A DNA stretch of 53,211 nucleotides from a virus (IMGVR_UViG_3300025875_000036:1-53211); one strand, 5' to 3'. Shown: positions 3,850-12,839, numbered from the stretch's first letter. Program-made: numbers and translations. Notes: generated from the letters alone by a model not told the origin.

Positions 3850-4341
3850 ATGAATCATTTAATTTCACAAATTGCAACCCTGGGGCGGGAGCAAGTTTTA
3901 AAGCACCTTAAAAGTAAAGGCATCCAACCCGATAAGGAGGATATTATTACCGACCGCGATACCCGTGCCCGGTTTTACCTTGTTATAAGTACTAAACGGT
4001 ATAAATCGATTGATACGAGTAAATGTACCGGGATGAACGATAAGCGCATCGCTACTATCGAGGAAAAGGTAAAAAAGTTAAACGCGGACGGGGCGTACCT
4101 TGTTTTTGTTGATGCAAAACTCGGTATATGCTACGGCGGGTATTTAAGCAAGCTCCAGCAGCCTAAAGAGTTCGACGGCATCCGCTGGCCACTAACCCAG
4201 GTCGGCCCCGCCGGGCGAATTACTTACTGGAGCGTTTTCCACATGCAAACCCTTTTTACTTTAGACGCCGCCGTTGTTAGCAAATTAGATGAGCTCGGCT
4301 CCGATAACAAATACGATAAAACCCAGGGTAAATTATTTTAG
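3850..4341 (+). CDS. Hypothetical protein, possibly degenerate PD-(D/E)XK fold
   Basis: 163 aa; the D...STK...TG...YLVFVD spacing recalls small phage restriction-endonuclease folds; weak. Confidence 0.5.
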   Translation: MNHLISQIATLGREQVLKHLKSKGIQPDKEDIITDRDTRARFYLVISTKRYKSIDTSKCTGMNDKRIATIEEKVKKLNADGAYLVFVDAKLGICYGGYLSKLQQPKEFDGIRWPLTQVGPAGRITYWSVFHMQTLFTLDAAVVSKLDELGSDNKYDKTQGKLF

Positions 4342-4344
4342 TTT

Positions 4345-5238
4345 ATGAAAATTTATGTAGCAAGTAGCTGGCGGAACGACACCCAACCGGCATTAGTTCA
4401 ATATTTAACCGAGCAAGGCCATGAGGTGTATGATTTTAAAAACCCGGCACCGGGCAACAACGGATTCGGGTGGCGGGAATTAGACCCTAATTGGCAAAAC
4501 TGGAATAATAATCAATATATCGCGGCACTTGAGCACCCCATAGCTGAGTCCGGTTACGCCAGTGATTTTAATGCCATGCAATGGGCGGATGCGTGTGTGT
4601 TAGTTTTACCGTGCGGGCGTAGCGCCCACACCGAGGCCGGTTGGATGCAGGGACAAGGTAAGCCAACAATAGTATTACTCGACCCCAACGGACAAGAACC
4701 GGAGTTGATGTATAAAATTTATTACTCAATAGAAACAACCTTTACCGGCGTTAAAAATAGCTTAGAATCTATAACAGATATACAAAATTTAACAAAACAG
4801 TTTTTGATATTTAAAGTAGGTGATTGGGTTTACTATGAATTCAAGCTCGGTAAGGTTTGCAGCCTTAACACCTGGGGAGAGGTAAACGGTATTGATTTCG
4901 GGTATAACGAGACGTTCGGCGCTTTAAACCCGAGTACGTTTCCTTTAAACATGGATAATAAACTTGTTAGCGCGGAGTTCGCGACATGGTACGACAAGCT
5001 TCGCCGGGAGGCACCCGACCTGGATATGCGTATGGTTCACCCCTACCTCGTACACCTATGGGAGGGGCTTGTTAGCGATTACTCCGAGGATAATTTTAAA
5101 ACCGTAATACAGGTACTCGATGACTTCGGCCATGCCTGTATAGACGCCCAGCACGAAAAAGACCTTTGCATGGGCACGGAACCCCGCCGGATAAACGGTA
5201 TTAGGATTTTTAATGGTTTTAGGCAAAAAACGGGTTAA
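4345..5238 (+). CDS. Nucleoside 2-deoxyribosyltransferase-like (nucleotide N-glycosidase fold) domain fused to an unknown C-terminal domain
   Basis: KIYVASSW...GHEVYDF...DFNAMQWADACVLVLPCGRSAHTEAGWMQGQGKP matches the NDT/Rcl pattern including the nucleophile Glu. Confidence 0.75.
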   Translation: MKIYVASSWRNDTQPALVQYLTEQGHEVYDFKNPAPGNNGFGWRELDPNWQNWNNNQYIAALEHPIAESGYASDFNAMQWADACVLVLPCGRSAHTEAGWMQGQGKPTIVLLDPNGQEPELMYKIYYSIETTFTGVKNSLESITDIQNLTKQFLIFKVGDWVYYEFKLGKVCSLNTWGEVNGIDFGYNETFGALNPSTFPLNMDNKLVSAEFATWYDKLRREAPDLDMRMVHPYLVHLWEGLVSDYSEDNFKTVIQVLDDFGHACIDAQHEKDLCMGTEPRRINGIRIFNGFRQKTG

Positions 5239-5312: not shown

Positions 5313-5867
5313 ATGGAGGAGCCACAAGACAACGAGTACCAATTGGGGGACAACCCCGGCTGGGCAAAATACAAAAAAATATTTTTTAGGAACGGCGAGA
5401 AGTACATGTCGGCCTGGGAGACCCTGGGGCGTATAGTACAAAGCGGGTTAACCGATGAGCAGCTTTGCGCCGTTTACGACATCGATACATCAACCTACTA
5501 TAAATGGCGGGAGCGGTATGCGGAATTTTCCGAGGCCGTTGATGTTAATAAAAGGCGGTTTGATGACGGGCGGGTTGAGGCGGCATTTTACCAACGGGCC
5601 ACAGGGTTTAAGGCCAAAGAGACCAAAGCCTTTGTTATCCAGGGTAAAATAGTTACAACCGAAGTGGATAAGTACTTTCCGCCCGACACTGGTGCCGGTT
5701 CAATCTGGCTTTACAACCGGCAACCGGACCGCTGGCGGGCGATTAGCCATATTGACTACACAAACAAAAACCCGGCGGCGGACGAGCAATTTGACACGAG
5801 TAAATTAACCGATGAGCAACTTGAGCTCTTTGAATGGCTTTTAGATATTATGCAAAAAAAGGATTAA
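5313..5867 (+). CDS. terS: Terminase small subunit (probable)
   Basis: N-terminal HTH (GLTDEQLC...STYYKW), RVEAAFYQRATG and PPDTGA..WL.NRQPDRWR are typical TerS motifs. Confidence 0.8.
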   Translation: MEEPQDNEYQLGDNPGWAKYKKIFFRNGEKYMSAWETLGRIVQSGLTDEQLCAVYDIDTSTYYKWRERYAEFSEAVDVNKRRFDDGRVEAAFYQRATGFKAKETKAFVIQGKIVTTEVDKYFPPDTGAGSIWLYNRQPDRWRAISHIDYTNKNPAADEQFDTSKLTDEQLELFEWLLDIMQKKD

Positions 5868-6089: not shown

Positions 6090-6309
6090 AATAGACGATG
6101 ATTTAACTAAAGAAGTTAAAACTCGAATCCCACACGATTGTATTAGTTGCGGTCAAGTTATACCCGCTAAACAGCAAGCCAGGGCGGTTAGTTACCGAAC
6201 CGATAACGGGCGTAAACTATACAAGGTGTACCAACATGCCGAGTGTGCAAAGACGGAGGATGCCAAAAAAATAGTTGTAAATAATATAACCCAAAGTTTG
6301 CAGGGTTAA
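6073..6309 (+). CDS. Small Zn-finger protein
   Basis: H-x-CISC...H..C motif. Confidence 0.7.
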   Translation: MEIKIEIDDDLTKEVKTRIPHDCISCGQVIPAKQQARAVSYRTDNGRKLYKVYQHAECAKTEDAKKIVVNNITQSLQG

Positions 6310-6338
6310 TATATTTGCGTATATTTGTACGTACTAAA
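6295..6338 (+). promoter_or_regulatory. Promoter with dyad box, copy 3
   Basis: AGTTTGCA...CGTATATTTGTACGTACTAAA (6318-6338). Confidence 0.85.
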
Positions 6339-6358: not shown

Positions 6359-6543
6359 ATGAGAGGTAACCCATTACGAATTTTGCTATTATTGCCGTTT
6401 TAGGCTTGTTAATTTTTGCTTTTACCCGTTGCGATAGCCCCGAGGATGTTGCACCTAAAAAGGTAACGGTTGCACCAAAAACCGAAATCAAATCAGATGG
6501 AGGCATATTACGTGTTAGATGCTCGTGGTGTGATAAAGAATAA
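6359..6543 (+). pseudogene. Small lipoprotein gene broken by a 1-nt frameshift (or started at ATT 6373)
   Basis: The ATG-6359 frame stops after 14 codons; the -1 frame reads ITNFAIIAVLGLLIFAFTR-CDSPEDVAPKK...CSWCDKE* (signal peptide and lipobox). Confidence 0.55.
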
Positions 6544-6740
6544 TTAATAGTACCCTGATTGAAAGTAAAACCGGTAGAAATCTGCTCTATAGAGGGCTTG
6601 AATGGTGAATTAACACCATAGGAGAGTATTCCAGTTGTATCCCGACAGCGTTGGTTTTATGAGTAGATAATACAAGGCACCCGCCGAGGCGAGGAGAGCG
6701 TGTAAACTTATACTGGATTATAAGCAGGGTATTATTAATT
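6542..6740 (+). ncRNA. Candidate ~200-nt structured RNA
   Basis: 16-bp closing stem 6542-6557/6725-6740 with one G-U pair, several internal hairpins and a possible pseudoknot; no ORF. Confidence 0.6.
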
Positions 6741-6750
6741 TAAAGTACCG

Positions 6751-6827
6751 GTTGCCGCCGGTTCTATACACGAGGGCGTAATTTGAGGGCCGCGTTAAGC
6801 ATTGCCTGAAGCACGGGCGGCGGCAAC
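6751..6827 (+). ncRNA. Candidate 77-nt structured RNA
   Basis: GTTGCCGCCG...CGGCGGCAAC perfect 10-bp terminal stem. Confidence 0.5.
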
Positions 6828-6898
6828 TTCTTTATACATGGCCGTCAAGGTAGTGAATCAAATTCGTAAGCCGGGCCGCGTGAGTGCCCGGTAATACC

Positions 6899-6999
6899 GG
6901 GCGGTAAGGTGTATTTTGGAATAGCACGTGTGAAATAGCCCCGTTGACGGACGGTTAGCTTAGTAACAAGGAAAGCAGGTTCGAGTCCGGCACCACCCA
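6899..6999 (+). ncRNA. tRNA-like RNA with an extended, non-canonical anticodon arm
   Basis: Acceptor GGGCGGT/ACCACCC plus discriminator A; D-arm GTGT-ATTTTGGAATA-GCAC; T-arm GCAGG-TTCGAGT-CCGGC; ~46 nt replaces the anticodon and variable arms; no encoded CCA. Confidence 0.7.
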
Positions 7000-7018
7000 C
7001 AAATACTTAAAAGCAAAC

Positions 7019-7357
7019 ATGGGACTAAGAACTTTGGCAACCGCTGAGGCGGTAAAACTTAAAAAGAACGCCCCGGCGCGGGCCTTAAAAAACATTACCC
7101 CGGCCCGTATTATAGAGGAGGGATTATACGGAGTTTTAACCGGCTTTGTATACGGCAACTCCGCCGTAAAGCTCGCCCGCCGTTGCGCCCTACCTTATAG
7201 CGACCGGATTAAATATGTAACCGATGAAAACGGCGGATTTACTATTAGCAACGAACGGGCCTTTACCGCCCTGGAGTACTACGTTGCCCGGCCCGAGGCT
7301 CGGCTTGTTAACCTTTGCGATTTTTTAAGCAGTAAATCAGACAACCTTGTTTTATAA
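7019..7357 (+). CDS. Hypothetical protein
   Basis: 112 aa with an A-rich leader. Confidence 0.7.
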   Translation: MGLRTLATAEAVKLKKNAPARALKNITPARIIEEGLYGVLTGFVYGNSAVKLARRCALPYSDRIKYVTDENGGFTISNERAFTALEYYVARPEARLVNLCDFLSSKSDNLVL

Positions 7358-7359
7358 AT

Positions 7360-7611
7360 ATGGAACCTAAAAAATTTAAGGGGCAAAATATTGTGATAGG
7401 CGATACCCAGCCCCAGTACAAACCTTTGCCCGCTTTATTAATGTCGGGCAAAGAGGGCGAGGTAATAACTTGCTGGGAGTTAACCCAAGAGGAAATCGAT
7501 GAAATAGTTGCTAACCGGTGTTTATACTTGAGCCAGTTGACTTTTAACAACCCGCTACAACCGATAAAACCGATGGCAAATTTAGCGGATAATTATACCT
7601 TAATGCCTTAA
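7360..7611 (+). CDS. Conserved-looking phage hypothetical protein
   Basis: 83 aa; Q.QY.PLPA...G.VITCWELT.EE...L.Q.TF..PLQP motif. Confidence 0.75.
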   Translation: MEPKKFKGQNIVIGDTQPQYKPLPALLMSGKEGEVITCWELTQEEIDEIVANRCLYLSQLTFNNPLQPIKPMANLADNYTLMP

Positions 7612-7613
7612 AC

Positions 7614-7736
7614 ATGACACGGCCCCAAAGAAAAATAGTCTTGTACTTTATTTTCACCGTTGCAATTTGCCTCGTCGTAGGGGGTTTATCAGCCGTTATT
7701 TTAAATATTATTGATATGCTTAATTTTAAAAAATAA
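7614..7736 (+). CDS. Single-TM peptide (40 aa, not in the ORF track)
   Basis: MTRPQRKIVLYFIFTVAICLVVGGLSAVILNIIDMLNFKK; fits exactly between its neighbours. Confidence 0.6.
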   Translation: MTRPQRKIVLYFIFTVAICLVVGGLSAVILNIIDMLNFKK

Positions 7737-7737
7737 C

Positions 7738-8076
7738 ATGGCCGAGGAACCTGAAAAAATCAGCAAACGCAAACAACTATACATCACCCTCGCTATACAA
7801 CAGTATAACGATATTTATTTACCCCTGGCAAAACAACAGGAGCTCAAAAAAATAACCTCGGAACGTGATTACGTTGAGCGGGCGTTAGCTAATTTTGAGA
7901 ACTGGGAGGTGCAATCAAACCAGTGTAAACTATTAGGACACCAGCAGCAGACGCTCAATTTTTTCGGCAAAGACGTGACAGCATGTGCCCGGTGTGGGGT
8001 TACGGAGCAACTAAGTGATATCCTATTCCCGTCGGTAGCTAACAAGCTAAAAAATGGACTTCCTGACAATACTTAA
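7738..8076 (+). CDS. Hypothetical protein (ATG 7738 preferred)
   Basis: Coiled coil followed by a C...GH...CARCG Zn motif. Confidence 0.65.
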   Translation: MAEEPEKISKRKQLYITLAIQQYNDIYLPLAKQQELKKITSERDYVERALANFENWEVQSNQCKLLGHQQQTLNFFGKDVTACARCGVTEQLSDILFPSVANKLKNGLPDNT

Positions 8077-8329
8077 CATCCATAATCAAAACGAGCTCGA
8101 TAAAAAACTTTTTGGCGAGTATGCTTACCGGCCAATGCCTGAGCCTGGGGCTCTTTGTTTAACTAAAACCGAGCTGGGGTACATGCGGAGCACCGTTACC
8201 CGTGTAGGGGCAACGAGCTTTGATACCGAGTTTGCTTTGCGGTGCCCCCAGCCGGACGGAACCATTGTTTACATAGTCCACACGATGGACGATATACCCC
8301 TTAACCGTTTTAGACCTATAGAATCATGA
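8054..8329 (+). CDS. Hypothetical protein
   Basis: 91 aa; ATGA overlap with the next gene. Confidence 0.65.
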   Translation: MDFLTILNIHNQNELDKKLFGEYAYRPMPEPGALCLTKTELGYMRSTVTRVGATSFDTEFALRCPQPDGTIVYIVHTMDDIPLNRFRPIES

Positions 8330-8550
8330 AATATATTAAATTTGTGTGCGATTCACCTAATTGTAATAATTTTACAAACCTCCACGAAAACAACATCCCC
8401 AACGGTTGGTTAACCATAGGCAACCCCGATAATAATACCCTTGAGGTTGTAAATAATTTACCCGACCCGGCGACACTTAAAGTATCCGCCCACCAGGCTA
8501 TACATTTTTGCTCAAAAGATTGCTTAATTGATTTTTTATTTACAGAGTAA
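8326..8550 (+). CDS. Small treble-clef-like Zn protein
   Basis: CDSPNC...GW...HFCSKDC. Confidence 0.7.
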   Translation: MKYIKFVCDSPNCNNFTNLHENNIPNGWLTIGNPDNNTLEVVNNLPDPATLKVSAHQAIHFCSKDCLIDFLFTE

Positions 8551-8556
8551 ACAGCC

Positions 8557-9291
8557 ATGAACTATTATATTGATACTGAGTTTTTTGAGGGTTTTGTAAA
8601 CCCGTTATGGGGTAAGCGCCGCCATTTTATCGACCTTATAAGTATCGGTATCGTGAGCGGTGACGGGCGCGAGTATTATGAAATTAGTAGCGACTTTGAG
8701 GTGGCCCGTGCCTGGTATAATGCCGACACCTGGGTTCGCGATAATGTATTGCTCCCTATTGTTTTTGAGTGTAGTTATAAAGAGCACTTTATAGGTACAC
8801 CGAGCGAGGGGGTATATCAAAGCTGGGCCGATGGTGTAAAGGAAGCCCCTCAATGGGAGACGTTCTGGTATCACCGGGCGGTATTTTACTTTAAAAAGTA
8901 CGGCAAAAAAAACTCGGTTATCGCCAGCGAGATTGTTTTGTTTGTTTACCGGGGCGCGGCGGTTAAAACAGCTGAGGAGTGGGGTAAAAATGTTAAGTTT
9001 GATTTTTACGGTTATTATGCCGATTACGACTGGGTATTGCTTTGCAGCCTGTTCGGACGGATGGTTGACTTACCTACCGGGTTCCCGATGTTTTGCCGCG
9101 ATTTGCAACAAACCAAACAAGAGCTGGAGGATGCACTTGACAGGCCCGGCACCGACATCGATTATAATTTAAACGAGGATAGCGACTATCCACAGCAAAC
9201 CGGGCAGCATAATGCTTTACAGGACGCCCGCTGGAATAAACAATTACACGAGTTTTTATTAAAATACCGGGAGCGGCAAAAAAATAATTAA
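8557..9291 (+). CDS. DEDDh 3'-5' exonuclease, Rv2179c/RNase AS (DUF5051)-like
   Basis: YYIDTEF, LISIGIV, YYADYDW, CRDLQQ and HNALQDARW motifs. Confidence 0.85.
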   Translation: MNYYIDTEFFEGFVNPLWGKRRHFIDLISIGIVSGDGREYYEISSDFEVARAWYNADTWVRDNVLLPIVFECSYKEHFIGTPSEGVYQSWADGVKEAPQWETFWYHRAVFYFKKYGKKNSVIASEIVLFVYRGAAVKTAEEWGKNVKFDFYGYYADYDWVLLCSLFGRMVDLPTGFPMFCRDLQQTKQELEDALDRPGTDIDYNLNEDSDYPQQTGQHNALQDARWNKQLHEFLLKYRERQKNN

Positions 9292-11348: not shown

Positions 11349-12839
11349 ATGATTAAGACCGCCCCCGGCAAAGAAAAAATACGTGAGGAGATGGCCCGCC
11401 GTAAATTGTTACGGTTTGTAACCTACATACGCAAAGATTACGAGGTTAACTGGCACCATGCGTATATTTGCGCCGCGTTGGATATGTTTGCCCGTGGGTT
11501 GATTAAAAACTTGATGATATTTGTGCCGCCCCAGCACGGCAAAAGTGAACTAAGCAGCCGCCAGTTACCGGCGTACATGCTGGGCCTTAACCCCGACAAT
11601 CGGATTGCGGTTTGTAGTTATAGCGATACTTTGAGCGGGCGGTTTAGCCGCGACTGTCAAAAAATTATCGATAGCGCCGAGTATAAAAAACTATTCCCCC
11701 GTACCTTTTTAAGCAGCAAGACGACTAAAAAAACTGACGTAGCTTACCAGCGCAATAGTGATATATTTGAGATTGTAGGTCACAAAGGCTATTACATGTC
11801 AGCTGGTATCCGTACCGGCTTAACCGGTAACAGCGTCGACATCGGTATTATTGATGACCCGTTCAAAGACCGTTTAGAGGCCGAGAGCCAAACTATGCGG
11901 GATAATGTTTGGAATTGGTACACGGACGTTTATAAAACCCGGCTACATAACGGCTCTCAAACCTTATTGCTACAAACCCGCTGGCACGAGGACGACTTGG
12001 CCGGGCGTTTACTTGCTAAAGACGATGAGCGAGCGGCCCAGGGCTTTATGCGTAAATGGACCGTTATCAACCTACCGGCAATCAAGGAGGACAACAGTAA
12101 CCCCGACGACCCCCGGCAAATAGGGGAGGCACTTTGGGAATCAAAACATAGCCGAGAGACTATACTTGAGCAGAAGGATATTAACCTCCGAACTTATTAT
12201 AGTTTATACCAGCAGCGGCCCCGCCCTCTTGAGGGTAACATTATTAAAACCGAGAAATTTAGTATCATAACCTGGGCCGACTTCCTTGAGTTGGTTAAGC
12301 ATAAACCGACACCCGTTTGGCAGTTTAAAGGTGATACGGCTTATACCGAGAAAACACAAAACGACCCCTCAGCTTTTTTAAGTGCTACGCTAATTGATAA
12401 CATTACCTATATCCGCCGGGTAAAATCAGTTCGTAAAGAGTTACCCGAGGCGATTGAGTACGTCAAGGAGTTTGCCGCCCTAAACGGGTATGGCGATAAA
12501 AGTTATATCCGCATAGAGCCGAAAGCGAGCGGGCTTAGTATCGTACAAGCCATTAAAAAAGGTACGATGTTAAATGTTGAGCCGTTTAAGTTCCCTAAAG
12601 TTAGGGGCGTCCGGATGGATAATAAAGACAAGGTTACCCGTGCCCATGCTATTACGGATATTATACAAGTAGGGCGCGTGGTGTTGATTGACGACGGCAC
12701 CGGGTGGGTAAAAACCTTTATGGATCAGTGTAGCGGGTTCCCTAATGCAACCCATGATGACGAGGTTGACGTGTTTGTGATGCAGCTCTTAGAGTTTTAT
12801 TTCGGTAAAGTAAAGAAAAAAATAAAAAATATTAATTAG
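11349..12839 (+). CDS. terL: Terminase large subunit
   Basis: Walker A PPQHGKS, Walker B IGIIDDP, QTRWHEDDLAG, YQQRP and nuclease-end FPNATHDDEVD. Confidence 0.95.
   Translation: MIKTAPGKEKIREEMARRKLLRFVTYIRKDYEVNWHHAYICAALDMFARGLIKNLMIFVPPQHGKSELSSRQLPAYMLGLNPDNRIAVCSYSDTLSGRFSRDCQKIIDSAEYKKLFPRTFLSSKTTKKTDVAYQRNSDIFEIVGHKGYYMSAGIRTGLTGNSVDIGIIDDPFKDRLEAESQTMRDNVWNWYTDVYKTRLHNGSQTLLLQTRWHEDDLAGRLLAKDDERAAQGFMRKWTVINLPAIKEDNSNPDDPRQIGEALWESKHSRETILEQKDINLRTYYSLYQQRPRPLEGNIIKTEKFSIITWADFLELVKHKPTPVWQFKGDTAYTEKTQNDPSAFLSATLIDNITYIRRVKSVRKELPEAIEYVKEFAALNGYGDKSYIRIEPKASGLSIVQAIKKGTMLNVEPFKFPKVRGVRMDNKDKVTRAHAITDIIQVGRVVLIDDGTGWVKTFMDQCSGFPNATHDDEVDVFVMQLLEFYFGKVKKKIKNIN

Follow-up and report, generated by a model that had tools for sequence, protein, structure and literature searches.

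Why does a phage keep, between the genes for its small terminase subunit (terS) and those for its large terminase (TerL) and portal, several hundred nucleotides without an ORF of ordinary length? The question is raised by IMGVR_UViG_3300025875_000036, an entire virus record from IMG/VR, 53,211 nt long and 99% complete, whose full length is referred to here as the window; all its long ORFs lie on the + strand. A sequence-only reading had described the region as the longest non-coding stretch of the window, a series of self-closed RNA units that lies downstream of a promoter and ends in a tRNA mimic. We find that the folded RNA elements of this region, hereafter the cassette (6541-6999; Table 1), are real and form a conserved block whose last member is a degenerate tRNA.

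Results

A non-coding gap behind a recurrent promoter-like motif

The segment 6544-7018 is indeed the biggest + strand gap of the window without an ORF of at least 40 aa (475 nt, the second biggest being 240 nt), and is overlapped only by mechanical ORFs of 25-67 aa on either strand. No conserved ORF was seen in the cassette on reading the ORF lists and the homologous sequences of the window and of the related contigs L117 and L124. Upstream, where a promoter had been proposed, stands TTGCGTATATTTGTA, which the window matches 18 times when up to 3 mismatches are allowed (3.56 expected; 0 of 100 shuffles reach 18), 17 of the 18 on the + strand. The same motif also stands 5' of the L117 cassette, and its TAnnTTTG-like core presumably resembles Bacteroidota promoters. 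It is probably a promoter of this phage, and the transcription unit carrying the cassette likely starts at the 6315 motif, together with the small upstream ORF.

That small ORF is lipoprotein-like and is broken in the window: the frame opened by the ATG at 6360 meets a stop near 6402, and a second frame (ORF 6406-6543) encodes the hydrophobic and Cys portion. Unbroken homologues adjoin the 5' side of the cassette in L117 (3816-3999) and L124 (7389-7583). The stop codon of this ORF (..DKE) marks the 5' end of the cassette in the window, L117 and L124, while another gene precedes the cassette of a third related contig, L140. The 112-aa orphan ORF on the 3' side has its sole relative in contig G001 (41% identity); a search of 5.8 billion proteins returned that protein alone, and viral contigs gave no relatives. 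The RNase AS-like exonuclease that had been noted elsewhere in the genome corresponds to the Rv2179c-like gene, but the minimal nucleotidyltransferase named along with it was not found among the 40 window ORFs scanned with Pfam, and neither was an integrase, a reverse transcriptase or a Ro/TROVE protein. No RNA run was found to contain the sequence, and three DNA runs yielded identical fragments only, 6616-7270 being without cover in the two non-source runs.

Table 1. Coordinates of features in the window and, in the last three rows, of the related cassettes on their own contigs
Feature	Position	Strand	Basis or detail
Nucleoside deoxyribosyltransferase-like gene	4345-5238	+	
Small terminase subunit	5313-5867	+	phrog_309, E 5e-32
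Promoter-like motif TTGCGTATATTTGTA	6315..6329	+	recurrence in window
Small lipoprotein-like ORF ending ..CDKE*	6360..6543	+	ORF reading
Unit 1, multi-helix RNA domain	6541..6745	+	z = -4.31; helices tabulated in four homologues
Unit 1 P1	6542-6557 with 6725-6740	+	16 bp
Unit 1 P2	6565-6571 with 6654-6660	+	
Unit 1 CCAGU-loop hairpin	~6630-6635	+	
Unit 1 conserved GUAGAUA	6663-6669	+	
Unit 1 P5 hairpin	6707-6712 with 6719-6724	+	loop CUGGAU 6713-6718
Unit 2, GC-rich hairpin closed by GUUGCCGCCG/CGGCGGCAAC	6751..6827	+	z = -2.37
H1, small variable hairpin abutting CGUAA	6855..6865	+	GAAU-CAA-AUUC; sequence reading
CGUAA + H2 hairpin	6865..6892	+	stem GCCGGGC/GCCCGGU, loop CGCGUGAGU; model R1
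tRNA-derived (tRNA-like) element	6899..6999	+	read from sequence
Acceptor of tRNA-like element	6899-6905 with 6992-6998	+	GGGCGGU/ACCACCC, 6/7 paired, one C.A
D arm of tRNA-like element	~6908-6927	+	loop with GG
Expanded anticodon domain of tRNA-like element	~6928-6974	+	
T arm of tRNA-like element	6975-6991	+	GCAGG-UUCGAGU-CCGGC, 4/5 paired, one A.G
Discriminator A of tRNA-like element	6999	+	
Orphan ORF, 112 aa	7019..7357	+	start 20 nt past tRNA-like element
Rv2179c-like 3'-5' exoribonuclease	8557-9291	+	PF16473, E 3e-7
Large terminase (TerL)	11349-12839	+	
L117 cassette	4192-4650		same architecture as window 6541-6999
L124 cassette	7574-7978		same architecture as window 6541-6999
L140 cassette	about 4300-4633		same architecture as window 6541-6999

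Stability of the units and comparison with known RNA families

The minimum-free-energy fold of 6542-7010 reproduces the self-closed units that had been described. The region as a whole has z = -1.88 (5 of 100 shuffles as stable), and its minus strand z = -1.01 (14 of 100). Among the single units, 0 of 200 shuffles were equally stable for unit 1, and 2 of 200 for unit 2 (scored over 6747-6830; z-scores of both in Table 1). The H1-H2 unit (6838-6898) has z = -1.40 with 14 of 200 shuffles, and the tRNA-like unit z = +0.56 with 133 of 200. At gathering score, Rfam 15 returned no match in the window, in agreement with the earlier remark that the units could not be matched to a familiar RNA family; group I intron, GOLLD, ROOL, glnA/Downstream-peptide, YrlA, c4 and small ribozymes were all included. 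With E allowed up to 10, the segment 6200-7300 gave four meaningless weak matches and no tRNA, and Rfam on the homologous cassettes gave tRNA matches only.

Recurrence of the cassette in other phages

Three more contigs of uncultured phages carry the cassette: L117, which is a longer version of G001, L124 and L140. G001 carries the closest TerL relative (70% identity, syntenic), and the contig ends 231 nt 5' of its homologue of the orphan ORF. In those 231 nt we found a hairpin, UUAAGGC-CGCGUUAGU-GCCUUAA, followed by a tRNA-like element; the counterpart of the hairpin in the window is CCGGGC-CGCGUGAGU-GCCCGG, called H2 below. A pattern made of the H2 loop and the T loop found G001 only in viral contigs and 26 stretches in metagenome contigs, 4 of which (L117, L124, L114 and L119) have 4-5 extra stem pairs, the other 22 having 0-2. 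L140 was added by a later scan of viral contigs. The 16 stretches that the same pattern picked out of 185,579 species genomes were rejected as chance matches, which lie 5' of ordinary tRNAs or within coding DNA.

Other searches with the cassette returned next to nothing. When the cassette and its homologues were compared by blastn with 50,697 GenBank phage records, no cassette match appeared, the only matches being of 29 nt (93% identity, E 0.04) between the D arm of the L117 tRNA-like element and three Staphylococcus and Enterococcus phage records; blast against five TerL relatives gave nothing significant, and scanning viral contigs for exact 25-mers found none.

A 187-nt segment that reaches from P5 of unit 1 through H2 into the D arm of the tRNA (its first 20 nt) is 94.1% identical between L117 and L140, and the window TerL has no match in the complete 68.6-kb genome of L140, which together imply that the cassette moves between lineages. 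In L124 a strong intrinsic terminator of 10 bp lies about 75 nt past the tRNA-like element, as is expected at the end of an RNA-producing unit.

Unit 1 is a conserved multi-helix domain

Unit 1 is closed by P1, an AT-rich stem of 16-17 bp across the homologues, shorter in L140; in the window it begins at the stop codon of the small upstream ORF. All four unit-1 homologues have the junction sequence AUUGAAAG and also GAGUAGAUA in common, and a hairpin displays CCAGU on stems that are unrelated from one homologue to the next. P2 (GUAAAAC/GUUUUAU) shows an A-U to G.U change in L124, and the entire P2 domain is missing from L140. The unit further contains a variable domain closed by P3. The inner helices differ among the homologues and some are topologically unconserved; GAGUAGAU, for example, pairs with a partner on its 5' side in the window but on its 3' side in L117 and L124.

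The sequence-only reading had named covariation among homologues as one of the checks to be made. With the three relatives in hand P5 and the pairing of the P5 loop do covary, and the H2 stems do so in a larger set of sequences (below). P5 (CUUAUR/YAUAAG) is paired at 6/6 positions in 4/4 homologues, with one G-C to A-U exchange. Its loop is complementary, by at least 5/6 Watson-Crick pairs, to a site 22-24 nt 5' of GUAGAUA in 4/4 (in the window, to AUCCCG at 6639-6644), in the versions AUCCCG/CUGGAU (window and L117), UUCCGU/ACGGAA (L124) and AUCCUG/CAGGAA (L140). There are only four cassette homologues, so that the unit-1 covariation rests on three sequence versions; it is suggestive, not proof, of a pseudoknot or kissing contact. 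An alternative partner for the loop is present in the window (UCCAGU/ACUGGA). P1 stacked on P5 would give a helix of about 22 bp, which could be an RNase III site.

Two scans of viral contigs with unit-1 patterns gave 0 stretches and 23 stretches, respectively, L140 alone being real among the latter. L124 and L006 seemed to contain unit-1 motifs a second time, but these were rejected as chance matches in coding DNA.

The last element descends from a tRNA and cannot decode

The tRNA mimic proposed for the 3' end of the cassette is borne out as a tRNA-derived element. The acceptor, T and D arms can be read, with a GTTCRANYC-type T loop and a discriminator, and the homologous slots match the tRNA model RF00005; neither ARAGORN at default, which finds 0 tRNA or tmRNA in the window, nor Rfam calls the element itself. 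A call by ARAGORN, at 6899-7000, required the intron option together with a score threshold of 80%. The element has no RF00005 match at the gathering score of 29 bits, and in place of a 5-bp anticodon stem with a 7-nt loop there is no standard anticodon arm.

Where the window has this element after H2, L140 has an intact tRNA-Gln(UUG) and L114 an intact tRNA-Asp. RF00005 scores for the slot are 55.6 bits in L140, 38.4 in L117 and 23.8 in L124; the L117 slot thus exceeds the gathering score, yet has a 14-nt insertion. Counted from acceptor to T stem, the distance is 40 nt in the tRNA-Asp of L114, 48 in L119, 56 in L117, 68 in L124 and 69 in the window. Acceptor stems remain paired at 6-7 of 7 positions and T stems at 4-5 of 5 among the homologues, with differing sequences. 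In L147 the tRNA lies upstream of H2 and has a 4-nt loop replacing the anticodon loop (41.1 bits). Non-decoding tRNA-likes thus stand beside H2 in five contexts, with an expanded loop in the window, L117, L124 and L119 and with a 4-nt loop in L147. The element in the window is the most degenerate of the set. We conclude that 6899-6999 has tRNA ancestry, keeps the acceptor/T/D 'top half' and cannot decode.

A tRNA with an intron was considered and rejected. ARAGORN places the 'introns' at 38/39, 34/35 and 33/34, in the window and L124 only at relaxed settings, and since these positions are inconsistent a spliced tRNA is unlikely. A tmRNA was likewise rejected: ARAGORN finds none, even when its threshold is lowered, G-C instead of G.U occupies position 3:70, and the only Rfam tmRNA signal, of 7.7 bits, is a fragment that falls outside the element (6266-6322). 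Each phage has an entirely different insert, and the longest antisense match of the window insert within its own genome is 9 nt, shuffled inserts mostly giving 9-10 nt.

H2 is a hairpin motif of many phages

H2 is defined, in the description that we call model R1, as CGUAA directly 5' of a stem of 6-7 bp that closes a CGCGUNAGU loop, on the sense strand. Model R1 matches the window at 6863-6899 with 41.8 bits (E 5e-13; next window match 11 bits), a match that is partly by construction as the window H2 is among the 38 sequences from which R1 was built. A scan of viral contigs with the pattern CGTAA, 4-8 nt, GCCGCGTNAGTGC gave 56 matches in 54 stretches with GC contents of 35-66%. At 48 of the 56, at least 3 further complementary pairs flank the fixed core, where about 5% would be expected by chance; 4 of those 48 are one coding-sequence family and probably spurious. 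Of the 8 remaining matches, 3 are bulged variants that R1 still scores at 28-31 bits. In all, the motif is present in about 45 viral contigs, from dozens of unrelated phages.

We aligned 38 distinct 37-mers, leaving out matches with fewer than 3 extra pairs, exact duplicates, L141 and L144. In this alignment, whose loop and two inner (closing) pairs are set by the search pattern and whose pairs 12-14 served in row selection, 91.4% of the cells are paired against 62.8% after shuffling, and 75 cells are changed on both sides against 21.3; 0 of 500 shuffles were as high in either measure. Slid registers gave 30-46% paired. Pairs 10 and 11, which lie outside the selection, pair in 34/38 and 19/38 cells. 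The invariance of the loop, of the closing pairs and, in some scans, of the T loop is partly by construction, these being fixed by the pattern. The one variable position of the loop is A in 26 sequences, U in 6, G in 4 and C in 2, and the loop can alternatively be drawn with a bulged C, a G.U pair, a C-G pair and a GNNA tetraloop. G.U occurs 5 times in the stems against A.C once, row selection having favoured G.U.

Model R1 found only the known copy of G001 in 80 other phage loci (892 kb), and in five complete genomes it found 1, 3 (clustered within 520 nt), 1, 1 and 0 copies. H2 is thus confined to one locus where checked; it is no repeated promoter or terminator. No Rfam family covers it in 12 + 6 loci, and there is no glnA or Downstream-peptide match at H2 in the loci scanned; judged by Rfam 15, the hairpin is an undescribed motif.

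Where does the motif lie? At 20 sites, of 37 loci examined, it is within about 120 nt 3' of a same-strand ORF stop. No protein family is shared by its flanks, up- and downstream ORFs clustering within close relatives only, and PHROGs leaves the function of the flanking ORFs mostly unknown. An ARAGORN tRNA or tmRNA on the same strand lies within 500 nt of 10/43 H2 sites. With introns allowed (ARAGORN -i), 9 of 18 calls lie within 400 nt of H2, about 0.8 being expected. Permuted tmRNAs called by ARAGORN begin 53-76 nt 3' of H2 in L137, L149 and L163, the last having a second H2 copy at the 3' end of the tmRNA gene; in L138 ARAGORN calls no tmRNA, yet a permuted-tmRNA match of Rfam starts about 80 nt 3' of H2. 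H2 is thus enriched beside tRNAs, tRNA-likes and permuted tmRNAs. At 28 of the 43 sites, however, no tRNA-type gene is nearby (L138 and four degenerate tRNA-likes being counted as having one) and ORFs follow; as most sites precede ORFs, H2 is not strictly a tRNA-leader element.

H1, just 5' of H2, is replaced by a hairpin of other sequence in L117, L124, L114 and L119. Unit 2 contains a degenerate copy of CGUAA with a CGCGUUA.. hairpin, which model R1 does not detect, and sequence comparison gives it no counterpart in L117, L124 or L140; it looks like a window-specific duplication of the H2 region within a GC stem. The confinement of unit 2 to the window, the wide occurrence of the 6865-6892 hairpin among phages and the intact tRNA-Gln in the L140 slot all go beyond the sequence-only reading.

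Discussion

A conserved cassette and how it would work

Our best explanation, which we hold with a confidence only a little above even, is that 6541-6999 is a conserved, horizontally mobile, co-transcribed ncRNA cassette that is cut at its tRNA-like element by RNase P/Z. The cassette is conserved, it is structured with covarying stems, its last element is of tRNA ancestry and H2 is associated with tRNA-type genes; we infer its transcription, its processing and any function of the released RNAs. Its core modules would be unit 1, of about 200 nt, stabilised by a loop-to-strand tertiary pairing and closed by the 16-bp AT-rich stem; the H2 motif, CGUAA-stem-CGCGUNAGU-stem; and the non-decoding tRNA-derived element. 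Transcription from the 6315 motif would span the small upstream ORF and the cassette, and host RNase P, then RNase Z or 3' exonucleases, would cut at the tRNA-like element. Such cutting would part the upstream structured RNA, with the stable H2 hairpin as its new 3' end, from the mRNA that follows, and would also free a non-decoding tRNA-like RNA. That the element serves as the cutting signal is suggested by the kept 'top half' alone, and would be the most economical mechanism.

Alternative readings

A plausible alternative would be a decaying tRNA (or tmRNA) expression unit, with unit 1 and H2 as cis-acting leader or regulatory elements. The tRNA of the window, L117 and L124 would then have been disabled by insertions in the anticodon loop and be a functionless relic. 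This dying tRNA gene with a conserved leader is the main rival, one that we consider unlikely but to be taken seriously; DNA-level roles and small ORFs are less likely. It accounts for the intact tRNAs of L140 and L114, for the fall of the RF00005 scores from L140 to the window and for the stem mismatches of the latter. The element of the window could indeed be dead, a relic with its recognition by RNase P lost. A published phage tmRNA gene has a predicted riboswitch in its 3' domain, which its authors read as controlling the tmRNA (PMC9004378). Neutral decay, however, would not be expected to leave non-decoding tRNA-likes beside H2 in five independent contexts with T loop and acceptor pairing kept, and most H2 copies stand before ORFs, not tRNAs.

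A wider idea, which we regard as doubtful, is that H2 marks an unrecognised RNA island, present at one locus per genome and common to many unrelated phages. The islands would make non-decoding tRNA mimics (with an anticodon loop of 15-45 nt or of 4 nt), permuted tmRNAs and ornate domains like unit 1, the tRNA body might be a natural scaffold by which a variable insert is stabilised and delivered, or a decoy for tRNA-targeting defence nucleases of the host, and H2, with its ~16 fixed nt, might be a new small aptamer or ribozyme in control of, or processing, the transcripts of the island.

We consider it improbable that the non-decoding tRNA-likes, unit 1 or both are anti-defence mimics or decoys that titrate tRNA-targeting nucleases or RNA-sensing defences. 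Nothing that we found points to the decoy or antitoxin mimic of the sequence-only reading: we identified no partner related to defence, the inserts have nothing in common from phage to phage, and the insert of the window finds no more complementarity in its own genome than chance would give. A literature search on tRNA-like RNAs and anticodon nucleases also found nothing specific. Such a role would fit the recurrence of altered anticodon loops on an otherwise kept tRNA scaffold and the travel of the cassette between unrelated phages, accessory counter-defence genes often moving in this way.

A DNA-level element with hairpins in single-stranded DNA, acting in recombination or mobility, as an origin of replication or in packaging, is distinctly improbable. 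It would agree with the single locus per genome checked, the site between terS and TerL, the long AT-rich inverted repeat and the mosaic transfer with sharp boundaries, but it leaves the kept tRNA T arm and acceptor unexplained, every copy read shares the strand of its flanking genes, and G.U is present in the H2 stems with A.C nearly absent (a difference that row selection favoured). As to packaging, H2 occurs in phages with a terminase unrelated to that of the window and at various genome positions. Lastly, small proteins missed by the ORF-length cut-off are scarcely credible, for although mechanical short ORFs overlap the region, no counterpart was seen by eye in the ORF lists and sequences of L117 and L124, the sole shared peptide is an antisense reading of the T loop, and the conserved blocks are short and separated by variable-length indels, which is incompatible with a reading frame.

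Relation to known systems

Phage T4 makes stable RNAs (species 1 and 2, or band C and D RNAs) within its tRNA cluster, and the c4 RNA of P1/P7 is processed by RNase P. Like these, the RNAs proposed here would be small structured phage RNAs co-transcribed with a tRNA or tRNA-like and freed by host tRNA-processing enzymes. They differ in having no sequence or Rfam relation to them, a non-decoding tRNA partner, and H2 and a 200-nt domain in the unit. In MALAT1-mascRNA and the tRNA-miRNA transcripts (TMER) of MHV68, a tRNA-like element in a longer transcript recruits RNase P/Z, and in transcripts of this type the upstream RNA keeps a structured, protective 3' end, of which H2 would be the analogue under the proposed cutting. 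Those systems belong to another domain of life and their sequences are unrelated, and processing in our case is predicted.

The ends of YrlA, a bacterial Y RNA-like RNA, form a Ro-binding stem, not an acceptor stem. YrlA has a tRNA-mimicking module and resembles the element of the window in being non-decoding ncRNA with a T arm, a D arm and an acceptor-like stem (PMC4201824); in contrast, the window has no Rfam match to it and no Ro/TROVE gene among the ORFs scanned. The large phage and prophage RNAs GOLLD and ROOL are, like the cassette, ornate ncRNAs of unknown function, and GOLLD is reported to lie often near tRNAs and in prophages (PMC5737381). The cassette, unlike them, is smaller (~460 nt), modular and equipped with a tRNA-derived element, and has no Rfam match. 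For the OM43 phage Melnitz, a two-piece (permuted) tmRNA gene with a predicted glutamine riboswitch has been described (PMC9004378). The likeness is that a phage gene for a translation-type RNA carries a small structured element that is conserved, H2 lying 53-80 nt 5' of the permuted tmRNAs of L137, L138, L149 and L163; the differences are that H2 has no glnA or Downstream-peptide match in Rfam and the window no tmRNA.

Significance

Phage ncRNAs are poorly charted, and the locus adds two candidate new RNA families, the 200-nt domain with its covarying tertiary pairing and the H2 motif of about 30 nt, which occurs in dozens of phage lineages and beside tRNA-type genes. Model R1 offers a simple handle for finding such RNA islands in viromes. 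The non-decoding tRNA-likes that recur by H2 bear on how phages use the tRNA-processing and tRNA-surveillance machinery of their hosts.

A recurrent motif and two protein-coding genes in the window

The motif (T/A)T(G/A)CGTATATTTGTA, which recurs in the window (see table), is also carried by L117, a phage contig with a homologous cassette, and is probably the promoter of the window phage. In the region 5' of the cassette, a small lipoprotein-like gene appears to be frameshifted at window 6360-6410: the ATG frame opening at 6360 meets a stop at about 6402, and from about 6370 onwards the hydrophobic segment and Cys lie in a different frame (listed ORF 6406-6543). The ORF of this gene is intact in L117 and in L124, another contig with a homologous cassette, and either a genuine frameshift or a fault in the assembly may account for its disruption in the window. 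Both the PHROG family and the homologue in G001, the closest TerL relative, match only the first ~143 of the 297 aa of the nucleoside deoxyribosyltransferase-like protein, so it has a second, unassigned domain fused at its C-terminal end.

Locations of the recurrent motif, hairpins, short segments and protein
Feature	Location	Strand	Description
Motif (T/A)T(G/A)CGTATATTTGTA	window, 17 sites, e.g. 31, 3098, 6315, 9329, 20205, 41966, 42463; further examples 42764, 44611, 45544, 51678, 51958, 53008	+	intergenic, recurrent
GAAGGA-loop hairpins	L147 about 8480; L148 about 4760; L155 about 5850		near H2
Short high-identity segments (examples)	L117 2117-2203; L140 3573-3659; L124 5354-5405
Nucleoside deoxyribosyltransferase-like protein	window 4345-5238		297 aa

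Structured elements in contigs carrying the H2 hairpin

Hairpins with a common GAAGGA loop occur near the H2 motif in three unrelated contigs, L147, L148 and L155; their stems covary (..ACG-GAAGGA-CGU..) across the three, and Rfam gives no matches to them at gathering score. On the minus strand of L147, 7350-8520 is occupied by an array, longer than 1 kb and non-coding in appearance, that contains three H2 copies, long-stem modules in repeated copies (CAUCAACACG.. / ..CGUGUUGAUGAAUG), a tRNA whose 'anticodon' loop measures 4 nt, and an element resembling tRNA-Sec.

On the minus strand of L119, the stretch 8200-8810 includes three hairpins whose loops are 9 nt long, with GGGCCAACA after each one. 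The leader and trailer of the tRNA-like element in this stretch form a 14-bp stem around it, and the intact tRNA-Asp of L114 is likewise enclosed by a leader/trailer stem. L114 is a GC-rich contig of 1.57 kb that looks mostly non-coding; promoter-like boxes (..CTTTGACAA..GGGATT(T)TCAGGA..) are repeated in both orientations at 150-800 and 1440-1470.

Short segments common to diverged cassette loci

The 15-nt string CTGGTAATCAATCCG is present in both L117 (about 4349-4363), within the variable insert of unit 1, the multi-helix domain, and L124 (about 8003-8017), just 3' of the tRNA-like element. At several sites in their otherwise diverged loci, L117, L124 and L140, a third contig with a homologous cassette, have segments of 45-87 nt in common with 88-94% identity. 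These short segments may be mobile regulatory cassettes.
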